In this document: positions 4,304-13,956 of the stretch, one piece after another
Numbering within the stretch: position 1 is the first letter of the stretch
Layout of the letters: each line of letters opens with the position of its first letter
Assembly: GCA_028711705.1 (NCBI GenBank)
Contig: JAQTRS010000002.1
Span: forward strand, 9,617 to 73,616
DNA: 64,000 nucleotides
From: Candidatus Moraniibacteriota bacterium
Lineage (GTDB): Bacteria > Patescibacteriota > Minisyncoccia > Moranbacterales > UBA1568
Direction of reading: 5' to 3'
Translations under genes and position numbers: made by a program
The notes under the pieces: generated by a model
The model's database searches: none
The model's input: only the letters and a program-made list of their open reading frames with translations
What the model was told of the DNA's origin: nothing

Positions 4304-7132
4304 CTAGATATACTTCCCAGTGAAGCTCTTCTTGCATTTCTTAAGTCCTGATGGGATGCCTGCGTAGACGATTTCTCCCCCGCCCTCGCCGCCCTCGGGT
4401 CCAAGGTCAATCACCCAGTCGGCGTGCTTGATCACATCGGTATTGTGCTCGACCACAACAATCGTATTTCCCTTATCGGCCAGCGCGTCCAAAACGATCA
4501 AGAGTTTTCGCGTATCCTCAAAGTGCAAGCCGATAGTCGGCTCATCAAGAATATAGAGCGTCTTACCGGTCGATTTCCGAGCCAATTCCGTCGCCAGTTT
4601 CACTCGCTGCGCTTCACCTCCCGAAAGGGCCGTGGCGCTCTGGCCGAGAATCAGATAGCCTAATCCCACTTCATCCAGCGCCCGCAGTTTCTCTTGAATC
4701 AGCGCATGGTCGCAGAAAAAGCTGCGCGCCTCGGAAACGGTCATATTGAGCACCTGGGATATATTCATCCCCCGATACTCTATAGCCAGTGTCTTTGCAT
4801 TGTAGCGCGTCCCTTGGCACTCCTCGCAGTCGACATAGACATCGGCCAGAAGATACATCTCCACCTTGCGCACCCCGCCACCCTGACAGACCTCGCAGCG
4901 GCCGCCGCGCATATTGAAACTGAAGTGGCTGGCATCATAGCCATCGCGCTTCGCCTCGGCCGTCTCGGCGAACAGATCGCGAATCGGAGAAAAAACCCCG
5001 GTATAGGTCGCGGCATTGGAACGCGGCGTGCGGCCGATCGGCGATTGGTTCACCGTAATCACCTTGTCGATATGCTGCAATCCGGTGATAGTCTTGTGCG
5101 TACCCACCCGCGTCTTGGCCTGATAGAAGTGTCTGGCCAAACTCTTGGAGAGGATGTCCTTAATCAGGGACGACTTTCCCGATCCGGACACGCCCGACAC
5201 CACCACGAATGCCTCCAGCGGTATCTGCACATCGACGTTTTTGAGATTATGCTCGGTGGCCCCGATAATCGATATGAATTTCTTCGCCTTGCGCGGCTTC
5301 CTGTTTTCCGGAGACACACTGATTTTTCCGGACAGGTATTGGCCCGTCAAACTCTTGGACTGCCACAGTTTCTTGGGCGTTCCCGAAAAGATCACCTCTC
5401 CCCCCTCGCGGCCCGCGCCCGGTCCCATATCCACGATCCAATCCGAAGCGGCCATGAGTGCCGGCTCATGTTCCACCACCACCAATGAATTCCCGTTTTC
5501 CCGAAGCGATTGGAGCGCGTGCACGAGCTTTTCCGTGTCGCGGCTATGCAGTCCGACGGACGGTTCGTCCAACACATACAAGATTCCCGTCAGATCCGAC
5601 TTCATCTGGATCGCCAAGCGGATACGCTGCGCTTCCCCGCCCGAAAGCGTTTCCGCACTACGGAAAATTTCAAGATACCCCAGTCCCACTTTTTCCACAG
5701 CCAAAAGACGCATATCCATTTCCTTGAGCAGGGTCGTCATAGCGTTTTTCAAATCTTTGGAAACTGTTTTGACCAGCATCTCCGAAAGACGCTGACGGAA
5801 AGCAGTCACACTGAGCGCCGCCATATCGTGGATAGAGCAATCCTCGATCAGAACCGAAAGGGATTCCTGTTTCAATCGCTTGCCTTGGCACGACGGACAG
5901 GTCCGCACGAGCATATACTTCTCGATCTCTTTGCGCAGGTGTTCCGATTTCGTCTCCTTGTGCTTCTTCTCCAATAACGGAACGATGCCGACAAACATCG
6001 CCTTCTGCTCCGCGGGCGAAAGCTTTTCTTTGCTTTTCAAAACCGCTTCTTCCCCATACAAAAGAATCTTCAGATGCTTGGCCGAGAATTTCTTGATCGG
6101 CGTCTTCATCGAAAAACCGCAACGTTCGGCAGCATCACGCAGGACGCTGAGCTGTCCTGTCTGCACCTGGCGCCCTTCGCTCGTCTTATTCCACGGACGT
6201 ATCGCTCCTTCAAGCAAAGATAGATTCTTGTTCGGGATGATAAGCTCCGGATCGAGCTCGAGCTTCACGCCCAGCCCCGAGCACGTTTCGCACGCACCTT
6301 CCGGACTGTTGAACGAAAAGATATTCGGCGCCAGTTCCGGCAGATGAACATCGCAGGCATGACAAACATATTCCTGACTGTACCAGTATTCTTCTTTTTC
6401 ATTCACCAAGAGGGTGAGCGCGCCATGCCCCAATTTGAAGGCCGTCTCGATAGAATCGAGCAGTCGCTCCTTGTCTGGTTTTTTCGTATCCAAAGTCAGC
6501 CGATCCACCGCTATCTCCATTTCGGAAAGCAGCATATCCGACGCATGCGGCAGCGCTTCGGAAATGAGCATAATCTGGCCATGGAAACGCACGCGGGCAT
6601 AGCCCCACTGCTCCACCTGTTTAAGCGCCTCCTTTTCCGTCTTTTTGAGCGTCTGCGGAAGCTTGGCAAGGAAAATGAAGAAGGTATTGTCCGGAAAATC
6701 CAAAATTTCCGCCAGGATTTCCTGACTGGTCTTTCGATGCAGCATACTGTGGCACTGCGGGCAATGCGGCACACCGGTCTTGGCATACAAAACACGGAGG
6801 TAATCATACACTTCGGTCAGGGTTCCCACGGTCGAACGCGGCGAACGGGAAATACTTTTCTGATCGATGGCGATCGCCGGACTTAAGTGATACATCGCGT
6901 CCACGTCGGGCTTGCCCAAAGATTCCATGAAGTTCCTCGCGTACGAGGAGAGCGACTCCATGTACCGCCTGTTGGATTCGGCATAGATCGTGTCGAAAGC
7001 CAAGGAAGATTTTCCCGAACCGGAAAGGCCGGTGATAACCACGAGCGAATCACGCGGGATTTCGACATCGATATTCTTGAGATTGTTGACACGGGCGCCC
7101 TTGATGATGATGTTATTATTTTTCTTTGCCAT
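4304..7132 (-). CDS. uvrA: Excinuclease ABC subunit A (UvrA, canonical class I, 942 aa)
   Basis: An N-terminal [14 protein letters not shown] motif and tandem ABC ATPase modules with zinc-finger Cys clusters. The length matches E. coli UvrA. Confidence 0.9.
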
Positions 7133-7283
7133 AATATAGTGAAGTGTGATAACTCTAAAACGATCGTCATACCCTTTGCCGTACCCCTCTCATATGACAA
7201 AGCAAGATTGGTATCAATCATACACCATTTTTTCCAGTTTGTAAAACCATTGCGCGCCCGTGTATGAAATGCATTTATTTAAA

Positions 7284-7321
7284 AAGCAAAAAACCCGCAT
7301 ACCGATACTATCGATATGCGG
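7284..7321 (-). terminator. Hairpin terminator downstream of the KP/zinc-ribbon gene
   Basis: An 8-bp stem CCCGCATA/TATGCGGG preceded on the plus strand by AAAAAA (T tract on the minus strand). Confidence 0.45.
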
Positions 7322-7334
7322 GCCATATGCCTTA

Positions 7335-8588
7335 TCAGGCATTTGCCTCTTTCTTCCTTCTTCCTTTCGTGTTCCTCGCGCATTCCGGGCAACCCCTCCC
7401 GGCAAGACGATTATGTCCCGTCGCCCGGTATTCGTGTCCGCATGATTTCACCGGGCATTTCCACCACAAAAGCCGAGTCGTCCCGGCAAACACCTCCCAA
7501 ACATGCTTCGTGTTCCTCCTAGCATACTCGCTTGCCAATGCGGGATGTGTGAAAGACAGATTGTTTGTGGGCGTCAGCACCCGATGCGAACATGCCGGGC
7601 AACCGCCGCCATCGAACCGCGTGACTCCCAACGATTCCCATTCATACTCGCAGGTCCTGCATTTCCACCAAAACCGCTTGCTCGGATGAGGGCACACCTC
7701 GGTGGCCTGCTTCTCATTCTTTTCGGAATACTCCGCTGCCAATTTTGGATACTTCGCGGCAAGATTATTGGTGGAGGTCACGACACGGAAAGCGCAAGCG
7801 GGGCATTTGGTCTTATCCTTCAATGGCCACTGATAGCGACATTCATTACATTCCTGCAATGTTGCCGATACCGGTGTCGCATTGACCTTGGGTTTTCGCC
7901 CTTCCTTAAGCTTTTGCTTATACTGAGCACTGGCCACCCGTTTAGACAGAGTCTTCAGGTCATCGCCATCCTTCACACTCAGGCCTGCTGCACGAAGCTT
8001 TTGTTTCGCAAGTTTCAGTTTCAACTTCAGCTTCGATCGAGGTTTGGGCCTGGGTCTGGGTTTGATCTTGGGCCTCAGTTTGGGTTTGGACACCGGCTTA
8101 GGTTTTCGCCCGGGCTTTTTCTTAGGCCTGGGTTCGGGTTTTGGCTTGGGTTCAGGTTTTACTCTGGGCTCCGGCGCCGATTTCGGTTTCTTCTCCTTTT
8201 TTTGCACCGGCTTGGGTTTTGGTTTCGGTTTGGGCTCAGGTTTTGGTTTCGTTTTCCGTTCTTTCTTCACTCGAGGTTTTGCGTCAGCGCTTTTAGTACG
8301 TTTCCTTTTTACGAAACGCTTCTTGGAAGCCCGCGCTCCCGACTTGGTATCGGACCAGGAAACACTATGCAATGCGGCATCGTACTGCGCCGAGCGGCCG
8401 CTTGAATCGAATGTTTTCAGATACTCCCGAAACTCCCGCACGCAAAACGTCTTCATACCCCGTTCATTTTCATACACGAAATCCGAAGCGCCGAGCAATT
8501 GTGCCATTTCCAATAATGGCACGCCCTCCTCGGTAAGAGCCCTGATTTCCATGTCCGTTTCTTGCAAAATACTCAATGGACGATCCAT
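7335..8588 (-). CDS. Hypothetical protein with three regions: an N-terminal HTH-like segment, a long K/P-rich (KPKPEPKP…) histone-H1/AlgP-like low-complexity region, and two tandem treble-clef zinc-ribbon modules of the DUF4379 type (CPAC…NNL…YP.LA.EY…WWKC..C)
   Basis: The ribbon module is duplicated ([26 protein letters not shown]…[11 protein letters not shown] and [26 protein letters not shown]…[13 protein letters not shown]). About 95 aa of KP repeats. Confidence 0.6.
8030..8270. repeat. Imperfect 6-nt periodic tandem repeat (GGNTTNGG units) that encodes the KP-repeat tract of the zinc-ribbon protein
   Basis: Read directly: ggtttgggcctgggtctgggtttgatcttgggcctcagtttgggtttgg…. Confidence 0.6.
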
Positions 8589-8680
8589 AGGATACGCTCC
8601 CCTTTTGTCAGTGATTGATTTGTTAAGATGCTTCGCTTTTCATCCGCATATGGCATACTCGGATGATAAGGGATAGTACC

Positions 8681-9928
8681 TTATTTCTTGCCCTTCGTCA
8701 ATAAAAAGCTCTTGGCGCGGCGCTTGCGGTGGAAGGTGATGGCGAAGCGGTGCGCCTCGCTGTTGGCAAGCAAAATGGCATCGTGATATTTTTTTGCGAA
8801 CTCCCCTTCTCCCAGGATGCTTTTGGGATTATGGTGCTCGTCCTTCACCACGCCCACCACAGGGATAGCCATAGCGAATTGCTCAAGCACCGCATGCGCG
8901 ACGTTGATCTGCAGATCAAAACCGTCCACCACGATCAGATCGGGCATCCGCCATTCCGAATGCTTCAATCGCCGCATCAGTATTTCCTCGAGGTTCTTCA
9001 CATCGTTGTTGCGTTCTATCGAAAGCTTGAACTGCCGATATTCCTTCTTATCCGGCACTCCGCTCTCCAGCACCGTCATCACGCCCACCACATCACGTCC
9101 CGAAAGATGCGCCACATCATAGGCTTCGATGCGGAACGAATCCGCCGCATAGCTTTCGATCGCATCCTTGCGCAAGAGCGACACGTCATAGATATGGCTC
9201 AAAGCGAACAATGTTTTTTTGAGAGCCTGCGCCTTCTCGAATTCCAATCGCTTGGCATATTCCCCCATCTCCTTCTTCAGATACCTGACGATCATCGATT
9301 TCTTCCCCTCGAAAAAAAGCTTGATATTGCGGATGGTCTTGGCATAGTCTTTCGCCGTCACCGCACCGTCGCACACGCCTGGGCACAAGCCGAGCTGAGC
9401 ATTGAAGCACGGTTTTCCCGAAAGCGGTTTGCACGTGTCGCGATACGGGAAAATCTTGCGCACGATTTTCAACGCTTCCTTCAAAGAGCCTCCCTGCGGG
9501 AACGGCCCGAAGGTATACCTGATCTTCATATCCTTCTTGGCATCCATATCCCTCCCCCGCATGAGCAGCACGCGCGGAAAGGCCTCTTTGGTGATGACGA
9601 CGGAGTAGAAACTCTTATCGTCCTTCTCATCGGTGTTATAGGGCGGCTGATGCTTCTTGATGAGCGACGCTTCCAAAAGCAGCGCCTCCAATACCGAATC
9701 GGTCGTCTGCCACTTCAGGTCCGTCACCTTCTCAAGCATCGCCACGATCTTTGGTCCGCGGGTCGAGGAGATATCGTGCGAGAAATAGCTCCGCACCCGG
9801 GAACGGAGCGAGGTCGCCTTACCGATATACAGAATGCTCTTTCCTTCCATAAAGAAATACACCCCCGGGGTATCGGGAAGCTCTTTTTGAAACACCATTT
9901 CTTTTGTGTTGCCAAACTTCATTGACAT
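8681..9928 (-). CDS. uvrC: Excinuclease ABC subunit C homologue (GIY-YIG plus RNase-H-like endonuclease domain). Short at 415 aa and lacks the C-terminal (HhH)2 region
   Basis: An N-terminal GIY-YIG motif (GVYFFMEGKSILYIGKATSLRSRV). The central endonuclease region DVAHLSGRDVVGVMTV…YRQFKL matches the UvrC/Cho family. Confidence 0.7.
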   Translation of the reverse strand: MSMKFGNTKEMVFQKELPDTPGVYFFMEGKSILYIGKATSLRSRVRSYFSHDISSTRGPKIVAMLEKVTDLKWQTTDSVLEALLLEASLIKKHQPPYNTDEKDDKSFYSVVITKEAFPRVLLMRGRDMDAKKDMKIRYTFGPFPQGGSLKEALKIVRKIFPYRDTCKPLSGKPCFNAQLGLCPGVCDGAVTAKDYAKTIRNIKLFFEGKKSMIVRYLKKEMGEYAKRLEFEKAQALKKTLFALSHIYDVSLLRKDAIESYAADSFRIEAYDVAHLSGRDVVGVMTVLESGVPDKKEYRQFKLSIERNNDVKNLEEILMRRLKHSEWRMPDLIVVDGFDLQINVAHAVLEQFAMAIPVVGVVKDEHHNPKSILGEGEFAKKYHDAILLANSEAHRFAITFHRKRRAKSFLLTKGKK

Positions 9929-10081
9929 AAATGCGGAAGTGTTATAGAATGCAGGAGCAGTTTTTTAACAACCCTGGTTTGATTAAAGTTAATTAAACCA
10001 CATTATAGGAGAAATACGCAATATGATGCCCATTCGTTTGCAACGAGAAATCCACGTCTTTATAATAAAAGGAAAGAAAAA

Positions 10082-10567
10082 ATGAGTACGATAATCGATT
10101 TTTGCAACAGGAACCGCGGGTCACACTGGTGGCTCATGATGATGTTCGCATCAATAATGATACCGTTGTTTGCTATATTCTACACGCTCTATCAATCCCT
10201 GGGGTTCACCCCTCAATTGATGGCGAAACTGATTATAGGATGCGACTACTCCGTCATCGAGTCCCTTTGGATCAATACCGGCCTCCAATGCGAAAACCTC
10301 TTTTCCATGGGAGCTATCATGAAAAACACGCCGTTCGCGCTGGATATCATGCTCCTTTATTGCATGACTTTCTCGACAACGTTTTTCCGTATTTGGAAGG
10401 GTCAGGTTTTCTTATCGGACCCGTCCACGGAATTCTGCGGTTGGAGCGTGCTTATCATGAGATTCAACTCCGAAGAAGAAGTTTCTTTTTCCACATTTCC
10501 TTTTATGAAAAAAGGCTACTGGCTCCAGCCGATTGAAAATTCAAAACAATTCGAGCTGGCAAAATAA
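10082..10567 (+). CDS. Hypothetical membrane protein (161 aa)
   Basis: Third-position C/G bias fits the genome, unlike the overlapping 10102-10536 frame. One clear transmembrane segment and an AGGAAAG SD. There is no homology clue. Confidence 0.35.
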   Translation: MSTIIDFCNRNRGSHWWLMMMFASIMIPLFAIFYTLYQSLGFTPQLMAKLIIGCDYSVIESLWINTGLQCENLFSMGAIMKNTPFALDIMLLYCMTFSTTFFRIWKGQVFLSDPSTEFCGWSVLIMRFNSEEEVSFSTFPFMKKGYWLQPIENSKQFELAK

Positions 10568-10585
10568 TATACACCTCTCAACAAT

Positions 10586-10630
10586 CCCGCTATCGCTTAA
10601 CGAGCGCTCTGGCGGGGTTTCTATTTCACA
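10586..10630 (+). terminator. Weak stem-loop (CCCGC…GCGGG) followed by a T-rich run after the 10082-10567 ORF
   Basis: A 5-bp GC stem with a 21-nt loop, then GTTTCTATTT. Confidence 0.25.
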
Positions 10631-10681
10631 AACAACGATTCCATCCCTTCAGAAAGCGACTTTCAAACAAAATATCATATA

Positions 10682-10710
10682 TTGACATATACGCTACACT
10701 ATGCTATAAT
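10682..10710 (+). promoter_or_regulatory. Consensus sigma70-type promoter TTGACA-17-TATAAT with an extended-10 TG, upstream of the small lipopeptide ORF
   Basis: TTGACA at 10682-10687, TATAAT at 10705-10710, and TGc immediately before the -10. Confidence 0.55.
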
Positions 10711-10786
10711 CGACCGTTGCTTTGAATGATCAAACAACACTCAATACCACTGGCTTTTTAACAAAAATTCTCAAAGGAGAATCGTC

Positions 10787-10918
10787 ATGCAAGAAGACAC
10801 CCGGATCAATCTCGGCATACTGATTTCCGTTATGCTGTTAATAGTATTCATTGCGATAGCATGCAATAAAACGGACAAAACTGAGCAAATCGCTCCGTCA
10901 ACGCTTTCTATCCGATAG
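10787..10918 (+). CDS. Small (43 aa) lipoprotein-like peptide (MQEDTRINLGILISVMLLIVFIAIA|CNKTDKTEQIAPSTLSIR)
   Basis: SD AAAGGAG. The N terminus is hydrophobic and ends in the lipobox-like AIAC. Hand-translated; under 60 aa, so absent from the ORF track. Confidence 0.4.
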   Translation: MQEDTRINLGILISVMLLIVFIAIACNKTDKTEQIAPSTLSIR

Positions 10919-10920
10919 CA

Positions 10921-10949
10921 TCGACAAACGGCTTTTCTTATGCTATATT
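10921..10949 (+). promoter_or_regulatory. Near-consensus promoter TCGACA-17-TATATT (extended-10 TGcTATATT) upstream of the second small ORF
   Basis: Read directly. The -10 context ATGCTATAwT is shared with the promoter at 10682. Confidence 0.45.
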
Positions 10950-10989
10950 CGAAAGGCTAGTAACTTAAAAACTCTGGAGGAAAAGAAAC

Positions 10990-11154
10990 ATGACTTCCGA
11001 AAACGTTGAAAAATGGCTCGAGACTATCGCCGCAAGAGAGGAAACTCAGACCTCGCCGAAAGTGAGACCATCATCACCGCAAGCACTGGAAATCCTTGAT
11101 GGAGCCGATGATCTATATCATTGCCTCGCTGATCAAGATCCGATTGCTCAATAA
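10990..11154 (+). CDS. Small hypothetical protein (54 aa, MTSENVEKWLETIAAREETQ…)
   Basis: SD GGAGG 8 nt upstream. Its N terminus is paralogous to the next ORF (MT-x-E-x3-KW-x-E-x-I). Confidence 0.4.
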   Translation: MTSENVEKWLETIAAREETQTSPKVRPSSPQALEILDGADDLYHCLADQDPIAQ

Positions 11155-11166
11155 TAGGAGAAGAAT

Positions 11167-11343
11167 ATGACTCCCGAAGCACACCGCAAATGGCGGGAAG
11201 ACATTGAAAAAATTCCAATATCTGAGACTCGCGAGATTTTGCTTCGCCATCATAGGCGGATCATTCCGGTTCTCAAAGAACCGATTCGTTTTACAAGTCA
11301 TGCCGAGTTGACACAAACGCCAGAAAAAGAACATATGGACTGA
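11167..11343 (+). CDS. Small hypothetical protein (58 aa, MTPEAHRKWREDIEKIPISETRE…)
   Basis: SD AGGAGA. It is paralogous to the 10990-11154 ORF and is followed by a terminator. Confidence 0.4.
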   Translation: MTPEAHRKWREDIEKIPISETREILLRHHRRIIPVLKEPIRFTSHAELTQTPEKEHMD

Positions 11344-11370
11344 AACATAGTCCCTGGCACCATACATCAG

Positions 11371-11408
11371 AAACAACGCCCGATAGCAATCCTGTCGGGC
11401 GGTTTTTT
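11371..11408. terminator. Rho-independent terminator (CGCCCGA-11nt-TCGGGCG then TTTTTT) that ends the small-ORF cluster. The uvrA2 stop lies at its T-tract edge
   Basis: A 7-bp GC-rich stem with a 6-T tract on the plus strand and A-rich sequence on the other side. Confidence 0.6.
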
Positions 11409-13956
11409 ATATACTCAGCACCCGTTTCAGGTATTCGCCGGTGTGTGAGCCTTTGGCATTAGCAACCTGTTCGGGCGTTCCCTTGGCGACCACTTTGCCG
11501 CCGCCTGATCCGCCTTCGGGTCCGATATCGATAAGATAGTCGGAACTTTTGATCACATCCATATTGTGCTCGATGAGAATCACCGAATTGCCCTTGTCCA
11601 CCAAACGCTGCAAAATCTCGATCAATTTTTTCACGTCCTCGTAGTGCAGGCCGATGGTCGGTTCATCCAAAAGATAAATCGTGCGCTGCAAATGCGGGCG
11701 ATAGAGTTCCGAAGATATCTTGATACGCTGCGCTTCCCCGCCCGAAAGCGTCGTGGCGGATTGACCAAGCTCCAGGTATTCCAAACCGACATCCCGAAGC
11801 GTCTTGAGCCGATCGGCGATGGCCGGGATATCCTTGAAGAATTCCGAGGCTTCCTCGACCGTCATCTTGAGCACATCGTAGATACTCTTTTTCTTATACT
11901 TCACCTCGAGCGTCTCCTTGGTGAAACGCTTGCCATCGCAAACATCGCACGGCACATAGACCGTCGGCAGAAAGTGCATCTCCACCGCGATCTCGCCATT
12001 CCCCTGACAGGTCTCGCAGCGCCCTCCCGGAACATTGAACGAGAATCGCCCAACCTTCCACCCGCGCACGCGAGCCTCGGCCGTCGAGGCATACAAATCG
12101 CGCACATGCGACCACATGCCGGTATAGGTTGCCGGATTGGAGCGTGGCGTGCGTCCGATCGGCGACTGATCGATCATCACGGCCCGGGTCAGGTATTCCG
12201 TCCCGCTCAGGCTCTTGCAATTGATGGCCTTATTATCTTTGTAGCGGCGATCGAAGCGCGCCTGCAGATTCTTGTGCACGATTTCATACAGAAATGACGA
12301 TTTCCCCGATCCGGACACGCCCGTCACGGTGATCAAACGCCCAAGCGGGATATCCACGTCCAAGTTCCGGATATTGAACACGCTGCCCCCGCGGACCTTG
12401 AGCGCGCCTTTTTCTTTGGTACGACGCACGGTCGGAACCTGGATTTTTTTCTCACCGCGAAGATACGAGAGCGTTACCGATCCCGATGCATTCGTCTTGG
12501 CCGTCAGCAATTGCTCCAGATCCCCCGACACCACGATATTGCCGCCATGCACGCCGGCCCCCGGTCCGATGTCGACCAGGTAGTCCGAGGCATAGATGGT
12601 GTCCTCGTCGTGCTCCACCACGATAATCGTGTTGCCCAGCTCGCGCAGACGTTTGAGAGTCGCAATAAGACGGTCATTGTCGCGCTGGTGCAGACCGATG
12701 GTCGGTTCATCCAATACATACAAGGCACCCACCAGCTGCGAACCGAGCTGCGACGCCAAACGGATGCGCTGCGCCTCCCCGCCCGAAAGGGTGTTGGCGC
12801 GCCGATCGAGCGAAAGGTAGTCCAAGCCGACATTCAACAGAAACTGCAGGCGGCTTTCGATTTCCTTCACCACCACGGCGGAAATTTTCTCCTCGCGCTC
12901 GGTCAATTCGAGCGTGGAAATGAACTCATAGGCGTCCCGGATGGTCGAGGCGGTATAGTCGATGATATTCTTGTCCCCCACCAAGACGAACAGAGCCTCC
13001 TCACGCAAACGGTGGCCATGGCAATCCTCGCAGACTTCCTCGCCGAAAAAGTGCTTGGTTCCCAAACCGTTGCATGTCGGGCAGGCGCCGTAGGGAGAAT
13101 TGAAACTGAACAGTCGCGGCTCCACCTCCGGATAGGAAAACCCATCATAGGGGCAGGAGAACTTCGACGACATCACGCGCTCTTCCCCGTCGAGGACGAT
13201 ACGGATCAACCCTTCGGTTTCCTCGAGCGCCTTGTCTATCGCCTCGTTCAATCGCTCCTGCGATCCGAACGCGTCGCTTTGAAATTCATCGAGCACGATC
13301 TCATCCACCAGCATATCGATATCATGCTTCTTGTTCTTGGACAGCACAACCTGATCGCGCAGGCTGCTCCGCACGCCGTCGATACGAGCCTCCACATATC
13401 CCTTGCTCAAGAAATCATACAGCATCTGATAATACTCCCCCTTGCGTCCGCGCACGATCGGCGCCCAGACTTGCAGCGTCGCAGGGACCTTGCTTTTCGC
13501 TTCGGGTTTTTCCTTGCGGTCGCTCACCATATCCACGATGAAATTCACCATCTCTTCGCTCGAGAGTTTCTTGATTTCCCGATTGCACACCAGACAATGC
13601 GGCCGCCCGATACGGGCATAGAGCACGCGCAAATAGTCATAGATTTCGGTGATGGTCGCCACCGTCGAGCGCGGATTGGACGAGCGGGATTTCTGGTCGA
13701 TGGAAATCGCAGGCGACAGCCCGGCAATCTCGTCCACATCCGGCTTCTGGAACTGATGCAGAAATTGCCGCGCATAGGTCGAGAGTGATTCCACGTAGCG
13801 GCGCTGCCCCTCGGCGAAAATGGTATCGAACGCCAAAGAGGACTTGCCCGACCCAGACAAACCCGTAAACACGATCATCTTGTTGCGAGGCATTTCGACC
13901 GTGATATTCTTGAGATTGTGCGTCCGAGCGCCCCGGACGATGATCGTATCCTGCAT
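11407..13956 (-). CDS. Second UvrA-family ABC ATPase (849 aa), about 93 aa shorter than the neighbouring UvrA. Candidate class II / UvrA2-like paralogue
   Basis: The N terminus [28 protein letters not shown] and tandem ABC modules resemble UvrA. The shorter length suggests the UvrB-binding/insertion domains are reduced. Confidence 0.8.
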   Translation of the reverse strand: MQDTIIVRGARTHNLKNITVEMPRNKMIVFTGLSGSGKSSLAFDTIFAEGQRRYVESLSTYARQFLHQFQKPDVDEIAGLSPAISIDQKSRSSNPRSTVATITEIYDYLRVLYARIGRPHCLVCNREIKKLSSEEMVNFIVDMVSDRKEKPEAKSKVPATLQVWAPIVRGRKGEYYQMLYDFLSKGYVEARIDGVRSSLRDQVVLSKNKKHDIDMLVDEIVLDEFQSDAFGSQERLNEAIDKALEETEGLIRIVLDGEERVMSSKFSCPYDGFSYPEVEPRLFSFNSPYGACPTCNGLGTKHFFGEEVCEDCHGHRLREEALFVLVGDKNIIDYTASTIRDAYEFISTLELTEREEKISAVVVKEIESRLQFLLNVGLDYLSLDRRANTLSGGEAQRIRLASQLGSQLVGALYVLDEPTIGLHQRDNDRLIATLKRLRELGNTIIVVEHDEDTIYASDYLVDIGPGAGVHGGNIVVSGDLEQLLTAKTNASGSVTLSYLRGEKKIQVPTVRRTKEKGALKVRGGSVFNIRNLDVDIPLGRLITVTGVSGSGKSSFLYEIVHKNLQARFDRRYKDNKAINCKSLSGTEYLTRAVMIDQSPIGRTPRSNPATYTGMWSHVRDLYASTAEARVRGWKVGRFSFNVPGGRCETCQGNGEIAVEMHFLPTVYVPCDVCDGKRFTKETLEVKYKKKSIYDVLKMTVEEASEFFKDIPAIADRLKTLRDVGLEYLELGQSATTLSGGEAQRIKISSELYRPHLQRTIYLLDEPTIGLHYEDVKKLIEILQRLVDKGNSVILIEHNMDVIKSSDYLIDIGPEGGSGGGKVVAKGTPEQVANAKGSHTGEYLKRVLSI

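Follow-up and report, generated by a model that had tools for sequence, protein, structure and literature searches.

A lineage-restricted DUF4379 zinc-ribbon protein encoded between uvrC and uvrA in Candidatus Moranbacteria

The uvrC-uvrA spacer and its transcription signals

The 64-kb stretch of DNA analysed here (the window) carries uvrC and uvrA on its minus strand, with a third gene, called X in what follows, between them. Both uvr genes were called with TIGR00194 and NF001503, each above its cut-off. An orthologue of X likewise lies between uvrC and uvrA on L084, a 2.2-kb metagenomic contig (blastp E 1e-84), and serves for comparison below. In order of transcription, the features of the locus are as follows:

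8681..9928, minus strand: uvrC, followed by a 92-nt spacer
8673..8701, minus strand: promoter-like site for X (TTGACG-17-TACTAT, consensus scan), the -35 hexamer lying within the last uvrC codons
8640..8666, no strand assigned: 27-nt palindrome, TCATCCGAGTATGCCATATGCGGATGA on the minus strand, a predicted stem-loop beginning about 7 nt past the -10 hexamer
8611..8627, minus strand: conserved 5' leader block of 17 nt, CTTAACAAATCAATCAC, identical in L084 at 15 of 17 positions (alignment A4)
8602..8597, minus strand: Shine-Dalgarno (SD) sequence GGGGAG, 8 nt 5' of the X start codon
7335..8588, minus strand: gene X, a CDS of 417 aa with an ATG start (ORF list)
7282..7324, minus strand: intrinsic terminator of X found by scan, a 15-pair stem (7324..7292) with 7 G-C pairs and then TTTTGCTTTT
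7245..7217, minus strand: promoter-like site for uvrA between X and uvrA (scan)
4304..7132, minus strand: uvrA, 202 nt beyond the end of X

The first-pass annotation had placed a 417-aa ORF on the uvrC strand, 92 nt after uvrC and next to uvrA, and both the ORF list and the family matches agree with it. By protein self-match the product is GenBank MDD5083644.1, a "zinc-ribbon domain-containing protein" of a Candidatus Moranbacteria MAG. Window positions 7008..11588 recur with 100% identity in L112, a Logan assembly made independently, so the KP-repeat tract within X (see below) is no assembly artefact. Two ORFs on the opposite strand, 7503..8405 (plus) and 8044..8676 (plus), were rejected as genes, since their GLG/GFG repeats mark them as shadow reading frames of the KP tract. 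The GC content of X is the same as that of its flanks, and a compositional sign of recent transfer is therefore absent. The X sequence shows neither a signal peptide nor a hydrophobic segment, and all three protein clusters checked for X were singletons.

Gene X sits on an accessory cassette in which a sigma-70-like promoter, a palindrome and an SD sequence precede the ORF and a strong terminator follows it. The promoter is predicted by consensus match only and its conservation is judged from two sequences: at the equivalent position L084 has TTGACA-17-TATTAT (11/12), the best site of that locus. For the palindrome a stem-loop is predicted in both the window and L084 loci (z -2.3 and -3.9). 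In its helix of 12 pairs, 95.8% of cells are paired and three pairs differ in both bases between L084 and the window, a covariation that comes from two sequences only and was equalled by 52 of 500 shuffles. An operator is one possible role of the palindrome, a stem-loop at the 5' end of the mRNA another. At the place equivalent to the X terminator, direct reading of L084 gives the stem CCCTCGTA ... TACGAGGG followed by a T run.

The uvrA promoter has a separate conserved palindrome, TGATTGATACCAATCT, which overlaps the -10 hexamer and is unrelated in sequence to that of the X leader. The window holds one perfect copy of the X-leader palindrome, and extra copies of either palindrome in the window are not above chance, so there is no regulon signal. 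Because the scan found no terminator in the 92-nt gap between uvrC and X, co-transcription of the two genes is possible as far as the sequence goes; the promoter-like site and the hairpin are present in that gap.

Domain make-up of the encoded protein

From its N to its C terminus, the X protein consists of the following parts:

8361..8588, minus strand: orphan globular domain at the N terminus, residues 1-76 (AF2 from both orthologues aligned)
7881..8333, minus strand: polycationic linker, residues 86-236, net charge +52 by composition
8031..8282, minus strand: KP-repeat core of the linker, residues 103-186 (84 aa), net charge +32
7794..7850, minus strand: zinc ribbon 1 (orphan, short), C247-x2-C250 ... 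C262-P-A-C265, from the Cys positions
7590..7781, minus strand: DUF4379 unit 1, residues 270-333, a helix part NNL..P.LA.EY..N and then WWKC310-x2-C313 ... C330-P-A-C333
7380..7577, minus strand: DUF4379 unit 2, residues 338-403, WWKC378-x4-C383-G-H ... C400-P-E-C403

Judged from sequence matches, the zinc module is the known Pfam family DUF4379 (PF14311), described there as a probable treble-clef zinc finger, plus an extra orphan ribbon. PF14311 matches X with 75.1 bits (cut-off 24.5; E 4.9e-21) in two stretches, the best of which, residues 351-405, covers profile positions 1-55 of 56. These two matches and the orphan ribbon give three predicted zinc sites of the Cys4 type (C247/C250/C262/C265; C310/C313/C330/C333; C378/C383/C400/C403), and all 12 ligands, together with the YQWPLK motif of ribbon 1, are invariant in the L084 orthologue. 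In addition, unit 1 aligns to the solved DUF4379 chain 6yxx_E2, and unit 2 aligns, ligand to ligand, with solved mt-SAF33 (6sga_Fd, E 1.4e-5). Both orthologues end 14 residues past the last zinc ligand. For the finger region, AF2 on the single sequence did not give a reliable model (pLDDT 26-42). The earlier guess of a "DUF4379-like" zinc ribbon was exactly the Pfam match obtained, and conservation of the zinc motifs in relatives, set beforehand as a test, was found in full in L084. The ribbons had also been called novel and described as two in tandem; PF14311 is a known family, the protein is already annotated in GenBank, and the Cys4-type sites number three. As first drawn, the repeat unit was out of phase with the domain, beginning where one ribbon ends and stopping where the next begins.

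The basic KP-repeat stretch described at first pass is present, its core containing 29 Lys, 9 Arg and 26 Pro among 84 residues and 21 [KR]P dipeptides. It was also said to be encoded by a 6-nt periodic DNA tract. The periodicity is borne out by autocorrelation (0.48-0.57 at lags 6, 12, 18 and 24 vs 0.14-0.25 out of phase) and by TRF, which gave weak period-6 and period-18 arrays, but the repeat is degenerate (direct-repeat family D1), with an exact period-6 run of at most 6 nt. The suggestion that the tract varies in length agrees with the sole known orthologue: its linker is 118 aa shorter, and the KP tract has shrunk to a K/P/V/I-rich linker of ~45 aa, so that neither length nor sequence is conserved. 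Database matches to the KP tract (TonB, PARP; E 1e-4 to 1e-5) are compositional only.

Residues 1-85 are acidic (pI 4.6). The AF2 model of the N-terminal domain from the two-orthologue alignment has a mean pLDDT of 82, with values of at least 90 at 57 residues, and predicts helices at 7-20, 25-31, 50-60 and 65-75 and beta strands at 38-40 and 46-48; the single-sequence model of full-length X (pLDDT 48) is usable for hints only. Among 1.84 billion representatives the domain has one sequence relative, P0022 (E 5.7e-9). Nothing in Pfam rose above cut-off (best E 0.04), Foldseek of the model against the PDB and BFVD returned nothing at E < 0.6, and neither sequence nor fold search indicated likeness to a nuclease. 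The metagenome scan found no relatives of the N terminus, and a word-index protein search in which the N terminus was the sole query returned nothing from an index so sparse that the result is uninformative. Kinship with the heads of P0002 and P0003, two nuclease-less DUF4379 arrays, was rejected (hhalign probability 0.4%). The label "HTH-like" first given to this part of X is unproven.

Distribution of the cassette

No X homologue occurs within 8 kb of uvrC at any of the 80 Patescibacteria loci fetched, whereas L084 has X in the same slot; the first-pass annotation had named absence from this position in close relatives as a refutation, which the 80 loci bear out and that one contig does not. 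Two relatives among the 80 have uvrC followed by a long uvrA, both without X, with gaps of 237 nt (L004) and 69 nt (L006). L004 is the closest genome (uvrA 89% and uvrC 76% identical to the window), and in blastn its match to the window stops at the end of uvrC and restarts 121 nt upstream of uvrA, which delimits the cassette:

7254..8699, minus strand: segment specific to the window relative to L004 (blastn), including the last five uvrC codons (TKGKK)

At this site the window has 1446 nt and L004 ~135 nt, a clean 1.45-kb indel. Transposon-type insertion was rejected, since terminal inverted and flanking direct repeats are absent around the cassette.

The architecture of X has two known members, in the window and on L084; lineage-wide synteny with the uvr genes is not seen at the 80 loci. 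The uvr-adjacent position in both members fits a repair link. GC content is 50% in the window and 39% on L084, whose uvrC-uvrA slot also holds a second, unrelated ORF. The two X proteins share 42-63% amino-acid identity vs 84-98% in the flanking Uvr segments. Third-codon-position identity is 42%, and despite this the finger region (60-63% identical) and the 12 zinc ligands have been kept, a signal of selection. The L084 gene has a frameshift in a (GT)5 run, which could mean decay of the gene; the frame past it is still open and about 60% identical to X, so the frameshift is very recent or an assembly error in the dinucleotide run.

A metagenome scan with the two-orthologue alignment recovered generic DUF4379 arrays only, at no more than 38% identity over the fingers and none with the N-terminal domain, and a scan of viral contigs for X found nothing. 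The word-index protein search with full-length X was swamped by KP low-complexity candidates and gave generic DUF4379 and TonB-like matches only; with the finger region alone it scored 25 candidates with one match, which is uninformative for so sparse an index.

Interpretation and comparison with known systems

We read X as a lineage-restricted, nuclease-less DNA-binding protein of DUF4379/CapR-like type, carried on an autonomous cassette and likely derived from a homing-endonuclease family, and give this reading a probability of about 0.5. As part of it, X would be cytoplasmic and the cassette would occupy the uvrC-uvrA spacer of a very narrow sublineage of the Moranbacteria, which are ultra-small bacteria. 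The reading builds on the domain identity, the three conserved zinc sites, the anatomy of the cassette, its pattern of presence and absence, and the domains to which the family is usually fused. Among 17 complete DUF4379-array ORFs from metagenomes, nine match REase_MTES_1575 and five match DUF559/Vsr-like families; in P0004 the array is fused to a ResIII/helicase, and P0006 contains an insert that resembles a REase. PHROG 681 ("endonuclease", E 1.6e-9) and PHROG 559 ("HNH endonuclease", E 1.5e-6) match X via its finger region. Such ~60-aa modules have been proposed as DNA-binding arrays of Vsr/EDxHD homing endonucleases (PMC12350094). Nucleic-acid binding, as proposed at first pass, is plausible in the light of the fusions to REase/Vsr nucleases and helicases and of the rRNA contact of a solved DUF4379 protein. 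X itself matches no nuclease family in Pfam (E up to 0.1), NCBIfam or PADLOC, and no PADLOC defence system.

In mechanistic terms, the three zinc ribbons and the +52 linker would hold X on DNA. Any preference for particular sequences or structures may come from the ribbons, and reach together with non-specific electrostatic affinity would come from the linker. At the N terminus, the acidic orphan domain of about 75 aa may act as effector or bind a partner, a role that can only be guessed at, as the domain lacks detectable relatives. A candidate operator for autoregulation would be the palindrome where X transcription is predicted to start. The protein would have originated from the homing-endonuclease-like DUF4379-nuclease family, minus the nuclease.

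Several other explanations were weighed. An accessory factor for nucleotide excision repair (NER) that is specific to this lineage, co-expressed with uvrC and tethering or recruiting UvrA or UvrC to DNA, would suit a gene on the uvrC strand, 92 nt downstream and with no intervening terminator, whose sole known orthologue is placed likewise. UvrC in the window has no HhH domain by Pfam, and in one version of the idea X compensates for the (HhH)2 domain missing from this 415-aa protein; the related nuclease-less DUF4379 protein P0003, moreover, is encoded next to a weak Pur_DNA_glyco match. However, the uvrC genes at all 80 Patescibacteria loci are equally short (about 1.2 kb) and do without X, that of L004 included; X has its own conserved promoter-like site and terminator; and it has no homology to known repair proteins, including the NER families of Pfam and NCBIfam. 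The two syntenic cases come from related genomes and so count as one evolutionary event, and the unrelated ORF in the L084 slot suggests a permissive insertion site. X is not a conserved component of NER, the repair role proposed at first pass is unsupported, and we regard an accessory function of this kind as quite improbable. It is similarly a long shot that X is a true lineage-specific partner of excision repair, captured from a homing-endonuclease DNA-binding array, that now docks UvrA or the HhH-less UvrC through its acidic head, with the ribbons and KP linker anchoring DNA. Another possibility is that X is the decaying relic of a free-standing selfish gene of homing-endonuclease type, which has lost its nuclease and has no cellular function. 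Nuclease fusions dominate the DUF4379 family, X evolves fast relative to its Uvr neighbours, and L084 has its frameshift. Free-standing homing genes such as T4 seg/mob are typically present in or absent from the spacers that separate highly conserved genes, and X follows this pattern. Against decay, the ORF, all 12 zinc ligands, promoter, SD, palindrome and terminator have been kept over a divergence that has nearly saturated the third codon positions; no remnant of a nuclease is left, both copies end at the same C-terminal point, and the open frame past the L084 frameshift points to a very recent event or an assembly error. A relic is accordingly unlikely.

A sequence-specific transcription regulator, acting as an autorepressor and possibly also on the uvrA promoter, would account for a conserved palindrome right where X transcription is predicted to start and for the different palindrome, TGATTGATACCAATCT, over the uvrA -10 hexamer, and the fingers are modular and of DNA-binding type. 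But the two palindromes are unrelated, each occurs once in the window and at chance level when mismatches are allowed, and the one in the X leader may just as well form a hairpin in the RNA. L004, which has no X, keeps the uvrA palindrome too, so X is not the obligate binder of that palindrome. We consider such a regulator very doubtful. Hardly probable at all is an RNA-binding or ribosome-associated protein, or a general nucleoid protein like H1 or AlgP. The only solved DUF4379 structures are in trypanosome mitoribosome assembly complexes, near rRNA h22/h23, which leaves room for RNA binding by X, and the KP tract is similar in composition to the basic tails of H1 and of AlgP. Bacterial and phage DUF4379 arrays are, however, fused to DNA nucleases and helicases; wide spread in the lineage would be expected, and X is known from two genomes; and a conserved KP/AKP repeat as functional core, the mark of an H1/AlgP-type nucleoid protein, is not found, the L084 linker being reduced.

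X adds little to the understanding of repair, being no conserved member of the uvr cluster and having a zinc module from a family already listed in Pfam. Its modest interest lies in a clean DUF4379 array that has no nuclease and is joined to an orphan head with a confident model. The family has thousands of bacterial and phage members, and X could serve as a convenient minimal protein for probing the binding of DUF4379 fingers. The uvrC-uvrA spacer of this Moranbacteria group appears as a slot that accepts autonomous cassettes, and the conserved promoter-like site and palindrome lead to a testable hypothesis of autoregulation. Were the docked-head reading true, X would stand in, acting in trans, for a DNA-binding domain that these reduced genomes no longer encode.

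Among known systems, the nearest are P0002 and P0003, arrays with short heads that share with X the ~60-aa unit NNL..P.LA.EY + WW.C-x2-C ... CP.C, are 44-49% identical to it in the finger region and likewise have no nuclease. They have 5-9 units, whereas X has two full units and one orphan ribbon, and unlike them X has a 150-aa polycationic linker and an unrelated N-terminal domain. The genome contexts of P0002 and P0003 look like Patescibacteria and differ from that of X. Array homing endonucleases of the CapR/DUF4379/DUF723-like type, with the related REase_MTES_1575 and DUF559 fusions and the phage proteins of PHROG 559 and 681, have the same finger arrays, proposed as their DNA-targeting module, and X resembles them in behaving as a small autonomous gene whose presence between conserved neighbours is sporadic; in place of their nuclease domain it has the orphan N-terminal domain and the KP linker. 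In Trypanosoma brucei, mt-SAF33 (6sga Fd) and 6yxx E2 show finger-unit homology to X (E 1.4e-5 and 2.7e-5, respectively) with the Cys ligands aligned, but they are eukaryotic organellar proteins with one to few units and an architecture unlike that of X. KP/KPKP dipeptide periodicity and high positive charge are also features of AlgP (AlgR3), histone H1 and the TonB spacer. To these the KP tract of X bears a compositional likeness only, without homology, and whereas AlgP/H1-like tails are terminal, the tract in X is an internal linker between folded parts.

Gene X and its predicted transcription signals

Gene X, which encodes the 417-aa zinc-ribbon protein, was recovered exactly as delimited in the first-pass annotation. 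GenBank lists its product, MDD5083644.1, as a 'zinc-ribbon domain-containing protein' from a Candidatus Moranbacteria MAG; this entry and the zinc module, DUF4379, are already known. X lies 92 nt from uvrC and 202 nt from uvrA.

Features of the locus in window coordinates, with one in L084
4304..7132, minus: canonical uvrA, 942 aa, downstream of X (NF001503, 1243 bits)
7205..7220: palindrome TGATTGATACCAATCT, overlapping the -10 hexamer of the uvrA promoter-like site
7245..7217, minus: uvrA promoter-like site, TTTACA-17-TATGAT, past the X terminator
7324..7292, minus: strong intrinsic terminator, 15 pairs, directly past the X stop codon
7335..8588, minus: X, ATG start (ORF list)
8 nt upstream of the X start, minus: Shine-Dalgarno GGGGAG, read from the sequence, kept in L084
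8611..8627: conserved 17-nt block in the X leader, kept in L084
8640..8666: 27-nt palindrome starting ~7 nt past the -10 hexamer of X, hairpin predicted in the window and L084
8701..8673, minus: X promoter-like site, TTGACG-17-TACTAT, -35 hexamer inside the last uvrC codons
8681..9928, minus: uvrC, upstream of X on the common strand (TIGR00194, 304 bits, above cut-off)
10082..10567, opposite strand: 161-aa ORF in the spacer 9929..11406, hydrophobic segment, no Pfam match
11407..13956, minus: 849-aa UvrA paralogue
L084 1249..1668, opposite strand: 139-aa ORF between X and uvrA, no Pfam family

A separate, independent Logan assembly (run SRR22315508) matches window 7008..11588 at 100% identity, so the KP repeat tract of X is not an assembly artefact. 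Opposite this tract, two GLG/GFG-rich antisense ORFs of 300 and 210 aa (7503..8405 and 8044..8676, plus strand) mirror the KP codons and were rejected as genes.

Judged by its signals, X appears to form a transcription unit of its own. At the equivalent place in L084, a 2.2-kb Logan contig (run SRR19430211) with an X orthologue, TTGACA-17-TATTAT is the top promoter-like site of the locus. The -35 hexamer is carried in both cases by a five-residue C-terminal extension of UvrC (TKGKK in the window, TKGGI in L084). Taken as a 12-pair helix, the leader palindrome has 95.8% of cells paired, and three pairs differ on both sides between the window and L084; with two sequences, statistical power is low. 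The element could serve as an operator or as a hairpin at the 5' end of the mRNA. Transcription from uvrC could run on into X, although X need not depend on it, and continuation from X into uvrA appears unlikely. L084 has the same hexamers in its uvrA promoter-like site, and this region is also kept in L004, one of two relatives' loci (with L006) in which a long uvrA follows uvrC. The TGATTGATACCAATCT palindrome, which occurs once in the window, is kept in L084, is present with one change in L004 and is not conserved in L006; it is a candidate operator for some uvrA regulator.

The uvrC-uvrA slot in relatives

In the window, uvrC is flanked by two UvrA paralogues. What the 849-aa paralogue is missing is precisely the PF17755 'UvrA DNA-binding/insertion' domain: UvrA1 residues ~291-411 have no counterpart in that protein. 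UvrC (415 aa) has GIY-YIG, UVR and UvrC_RNaseH (RNase H-like) domains, and no C-terminal (HhH)2 domain was found by Pfam; tblastn matches to it among the Patescibacteria loci fetched are also ~1.2 kb long. The spacer from the short uvrA to uvrC (9929..11406, 1.5 kb) has a GC content of 41-45% versus 52-59% in its flanks. Its counterpart in L004 (~0.95 kb) does not align with it, and the window spacer may be a second variable slot.

Eighty Patescibacteria loci were fetched around close UvrC relatives (49-76% identity). The usual order, seen in most, is a short-type ~2.5-kb uvrA directly upstream of uvrC. No relative of the X N-terminal domain, linker or fingers was found within 8 kb of uvrC in any of the 80. 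A long uvrA comes after uvrC on the common strand in L004 and L006 alone (2/80); among the loci examined, a long canonical uvrA downstream of uvrC is confined to these, the window and L084. X is absent both from L004 (UvrC 76%, UvrA 89% identity; uvrC-uvrA gap 237 nt by ORF coordinates) and from the more distant L006 (59%, 65%; 69 nt). Nucleotide alignment of L004 with the window gives a clean indel: homology ends at the end of uvrC and restarts 121 nt upstream of uvrA, and window 7254..8699 (1446 nt) stands where L004 has about 135 nt. L004 (CAZUWR010000003.1) comes from a MAG labelled 'uncultured Bdellovibrionales', and its uvrA/uvrC/uvrA block has the same gene order as the window at 73-86% DNA identity; the label is probably wrong.

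L084 (GC 39% versus 50% in the window) carries, in order, the uvrC 3' end, the X orthologue, a terminator, the 139-aa ORF and the uvrA start, so the slot takes other genes too. Its flanks match the window at 46/55 residues of the UvrC end and 98/100 of the UvrA start. Measured on these short flanks, L004 is about as near to the window as L084 is, which places X in two of the three members of a small clade. Conservation of X between uvrC and uvrA holds for L084 and fails in all 80 fetched loci, L004 and L006 included.

A frameshift in a (GT)5 run (L084 802..818) interrupts the L084 orthologue; assembly error, phase variation and early decay are all possible causes. Deleting one GT restores a 299-aa protein. 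Identity to X is 42-44% in the N-terminal domain and 60-63% in the finger region, the C-terminal ends coincide, and all 12 zinc ligands are invariant. Its linker falls 118 aa short of that of X and is only weakly KP-like. Since third codon positions are just 42% identical, the retained ORF and motifs indicate purifying selection and not recent common descent.

Architecture of protein X

Residues 1-85 are acidic (pI 4.6). AlphaFold2, given the two-orthologue alignment, confidently predicted a compact fold for residues 1-76 (mean pLDDT 82; at least 90 at 57 residues), with helices 7-20, 25-31, 50-60 and 65-75 and a beta hairpin at 38-48. Exhaustive phmmer against 1.84 billion representative proteins found a sole relative of this domain, that of the L084 orthologue (E 5.7e-9). 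The 'HTH-like' label given to it is unproven, because no Pfam family passed (top DUF746, E 0.04, below its cut-off) and Foldseek gave no significant match in PDB (best E 1.9, TM at most 0.26) or BFVD (best E 0.68); a few winged-helix proteins are among the non-significant fold matches.

The basic linker (residues 86-236) has a net charge of +52, and its KP core (residues 103-186) holds 29 K, 9 R and 26 P in 84 residues, with 21 [KR]P dipeptides. The proposed 6-nt periodicity of the underlying DNA is clear by autocorrelation (0.48-0.57 at lags 6, 12, 18 and 24). The repeat is nevertheless degenerate, with a longest exact run of 6 nt and weak TRF arrays, so present-day slippage looks unlikely. 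After the core, two helices (186-200 and 211-228; window ~7905..8031) have pLDDT 81-91 even in a poor single-sequence model, and residues 186-228 are missing from the L084 orthologue.

The finger region (residues 237-417) contains two full DUF4379 units (PF14311, 75 bits against a cut-off of 24.5, E 4.9e-21) preceded by an orphan short ribbon (C247-x2-C250 ... C262-P-A-C265). There are therefore three Cys4-type sites, where two tandem ribbons were first described, and the repeat unit originally drawn is shifted in register relative to the domain. The protein ends 14 residues past the last finger, and no nuclease domain was found in any profile library searched.

Interpretation and comparison with known systems

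The evidence best fits a reading of X as a DNA-binding member of the DUF4379 family that lacks a nuclease and is carried on a self-contained cassette. This cassette would have arrived in the uvrC-uvrA spacer within a narrow Moranbacteria sublineage or been lost from its sister. The three zinc ribbons and polycationic linker would hold DNA, the orphan acidic head may be an effector or partner-binding part, and X may be autoregulated via the start-site palindrome. Only two examples are known of this architecture, which combines an orphan head, a KP linker and 2+1 fingers and has no nuclease.

That X is a repair accessory, as first proposed, is improbable: its sole basis is placement next to uvr genes in two related genomes, which amount to one evolutionary event, and every other examined genome with the short UvrC is without X at this locus. 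A pure selfish relic is possible and would fit the DUF4379 family context, the fast evolution of X and the L084 frameshift; it sits poorly with the kept ORF, ligands and expression signals.

We know of no experimentally defined function for DUF4379 in bacteria; its associations are consistent. Among the first matches, P0004 is a ResIII/helicase fusion, P0006 has an REase-like insert, and others, with 7-9 fingers, carry additional C-terminal domains. Among 17 complete array ORFs, metagenome sequences picked by similarity to the X fingers, nine match REase_MTES_1575 and five DUF559 (Vsr-like). The finger region of X is also matched by PHROGs families named 'endonuclease' and 'HNH endonuclease', and similar arrays occur as small stand-alone genes in a few phages. 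The only solved DUF4379 proteins are two Trypanosoma mitoribosome assembly factors, mt-SAF33 (6sga_Fd; E 1.4e-5) and 6yxx_E2, both aligning with the X fingers including the ligands; mt-SAF33 is located on immature rRNA helices h22/h23 (PMC8784144). CapR/DUF4379/DUF723-like modules of ~60 aa followed by an EDxHD/Vsr nuclease are described as a large, previously unrecognised homing endonuclease group, in which the modules are proposed as the DNA-binding, specificity-giving part (PMC12350094, NAR 2025). Those homing endonucleases carry a nuclease, whereas X has the fingers without one.
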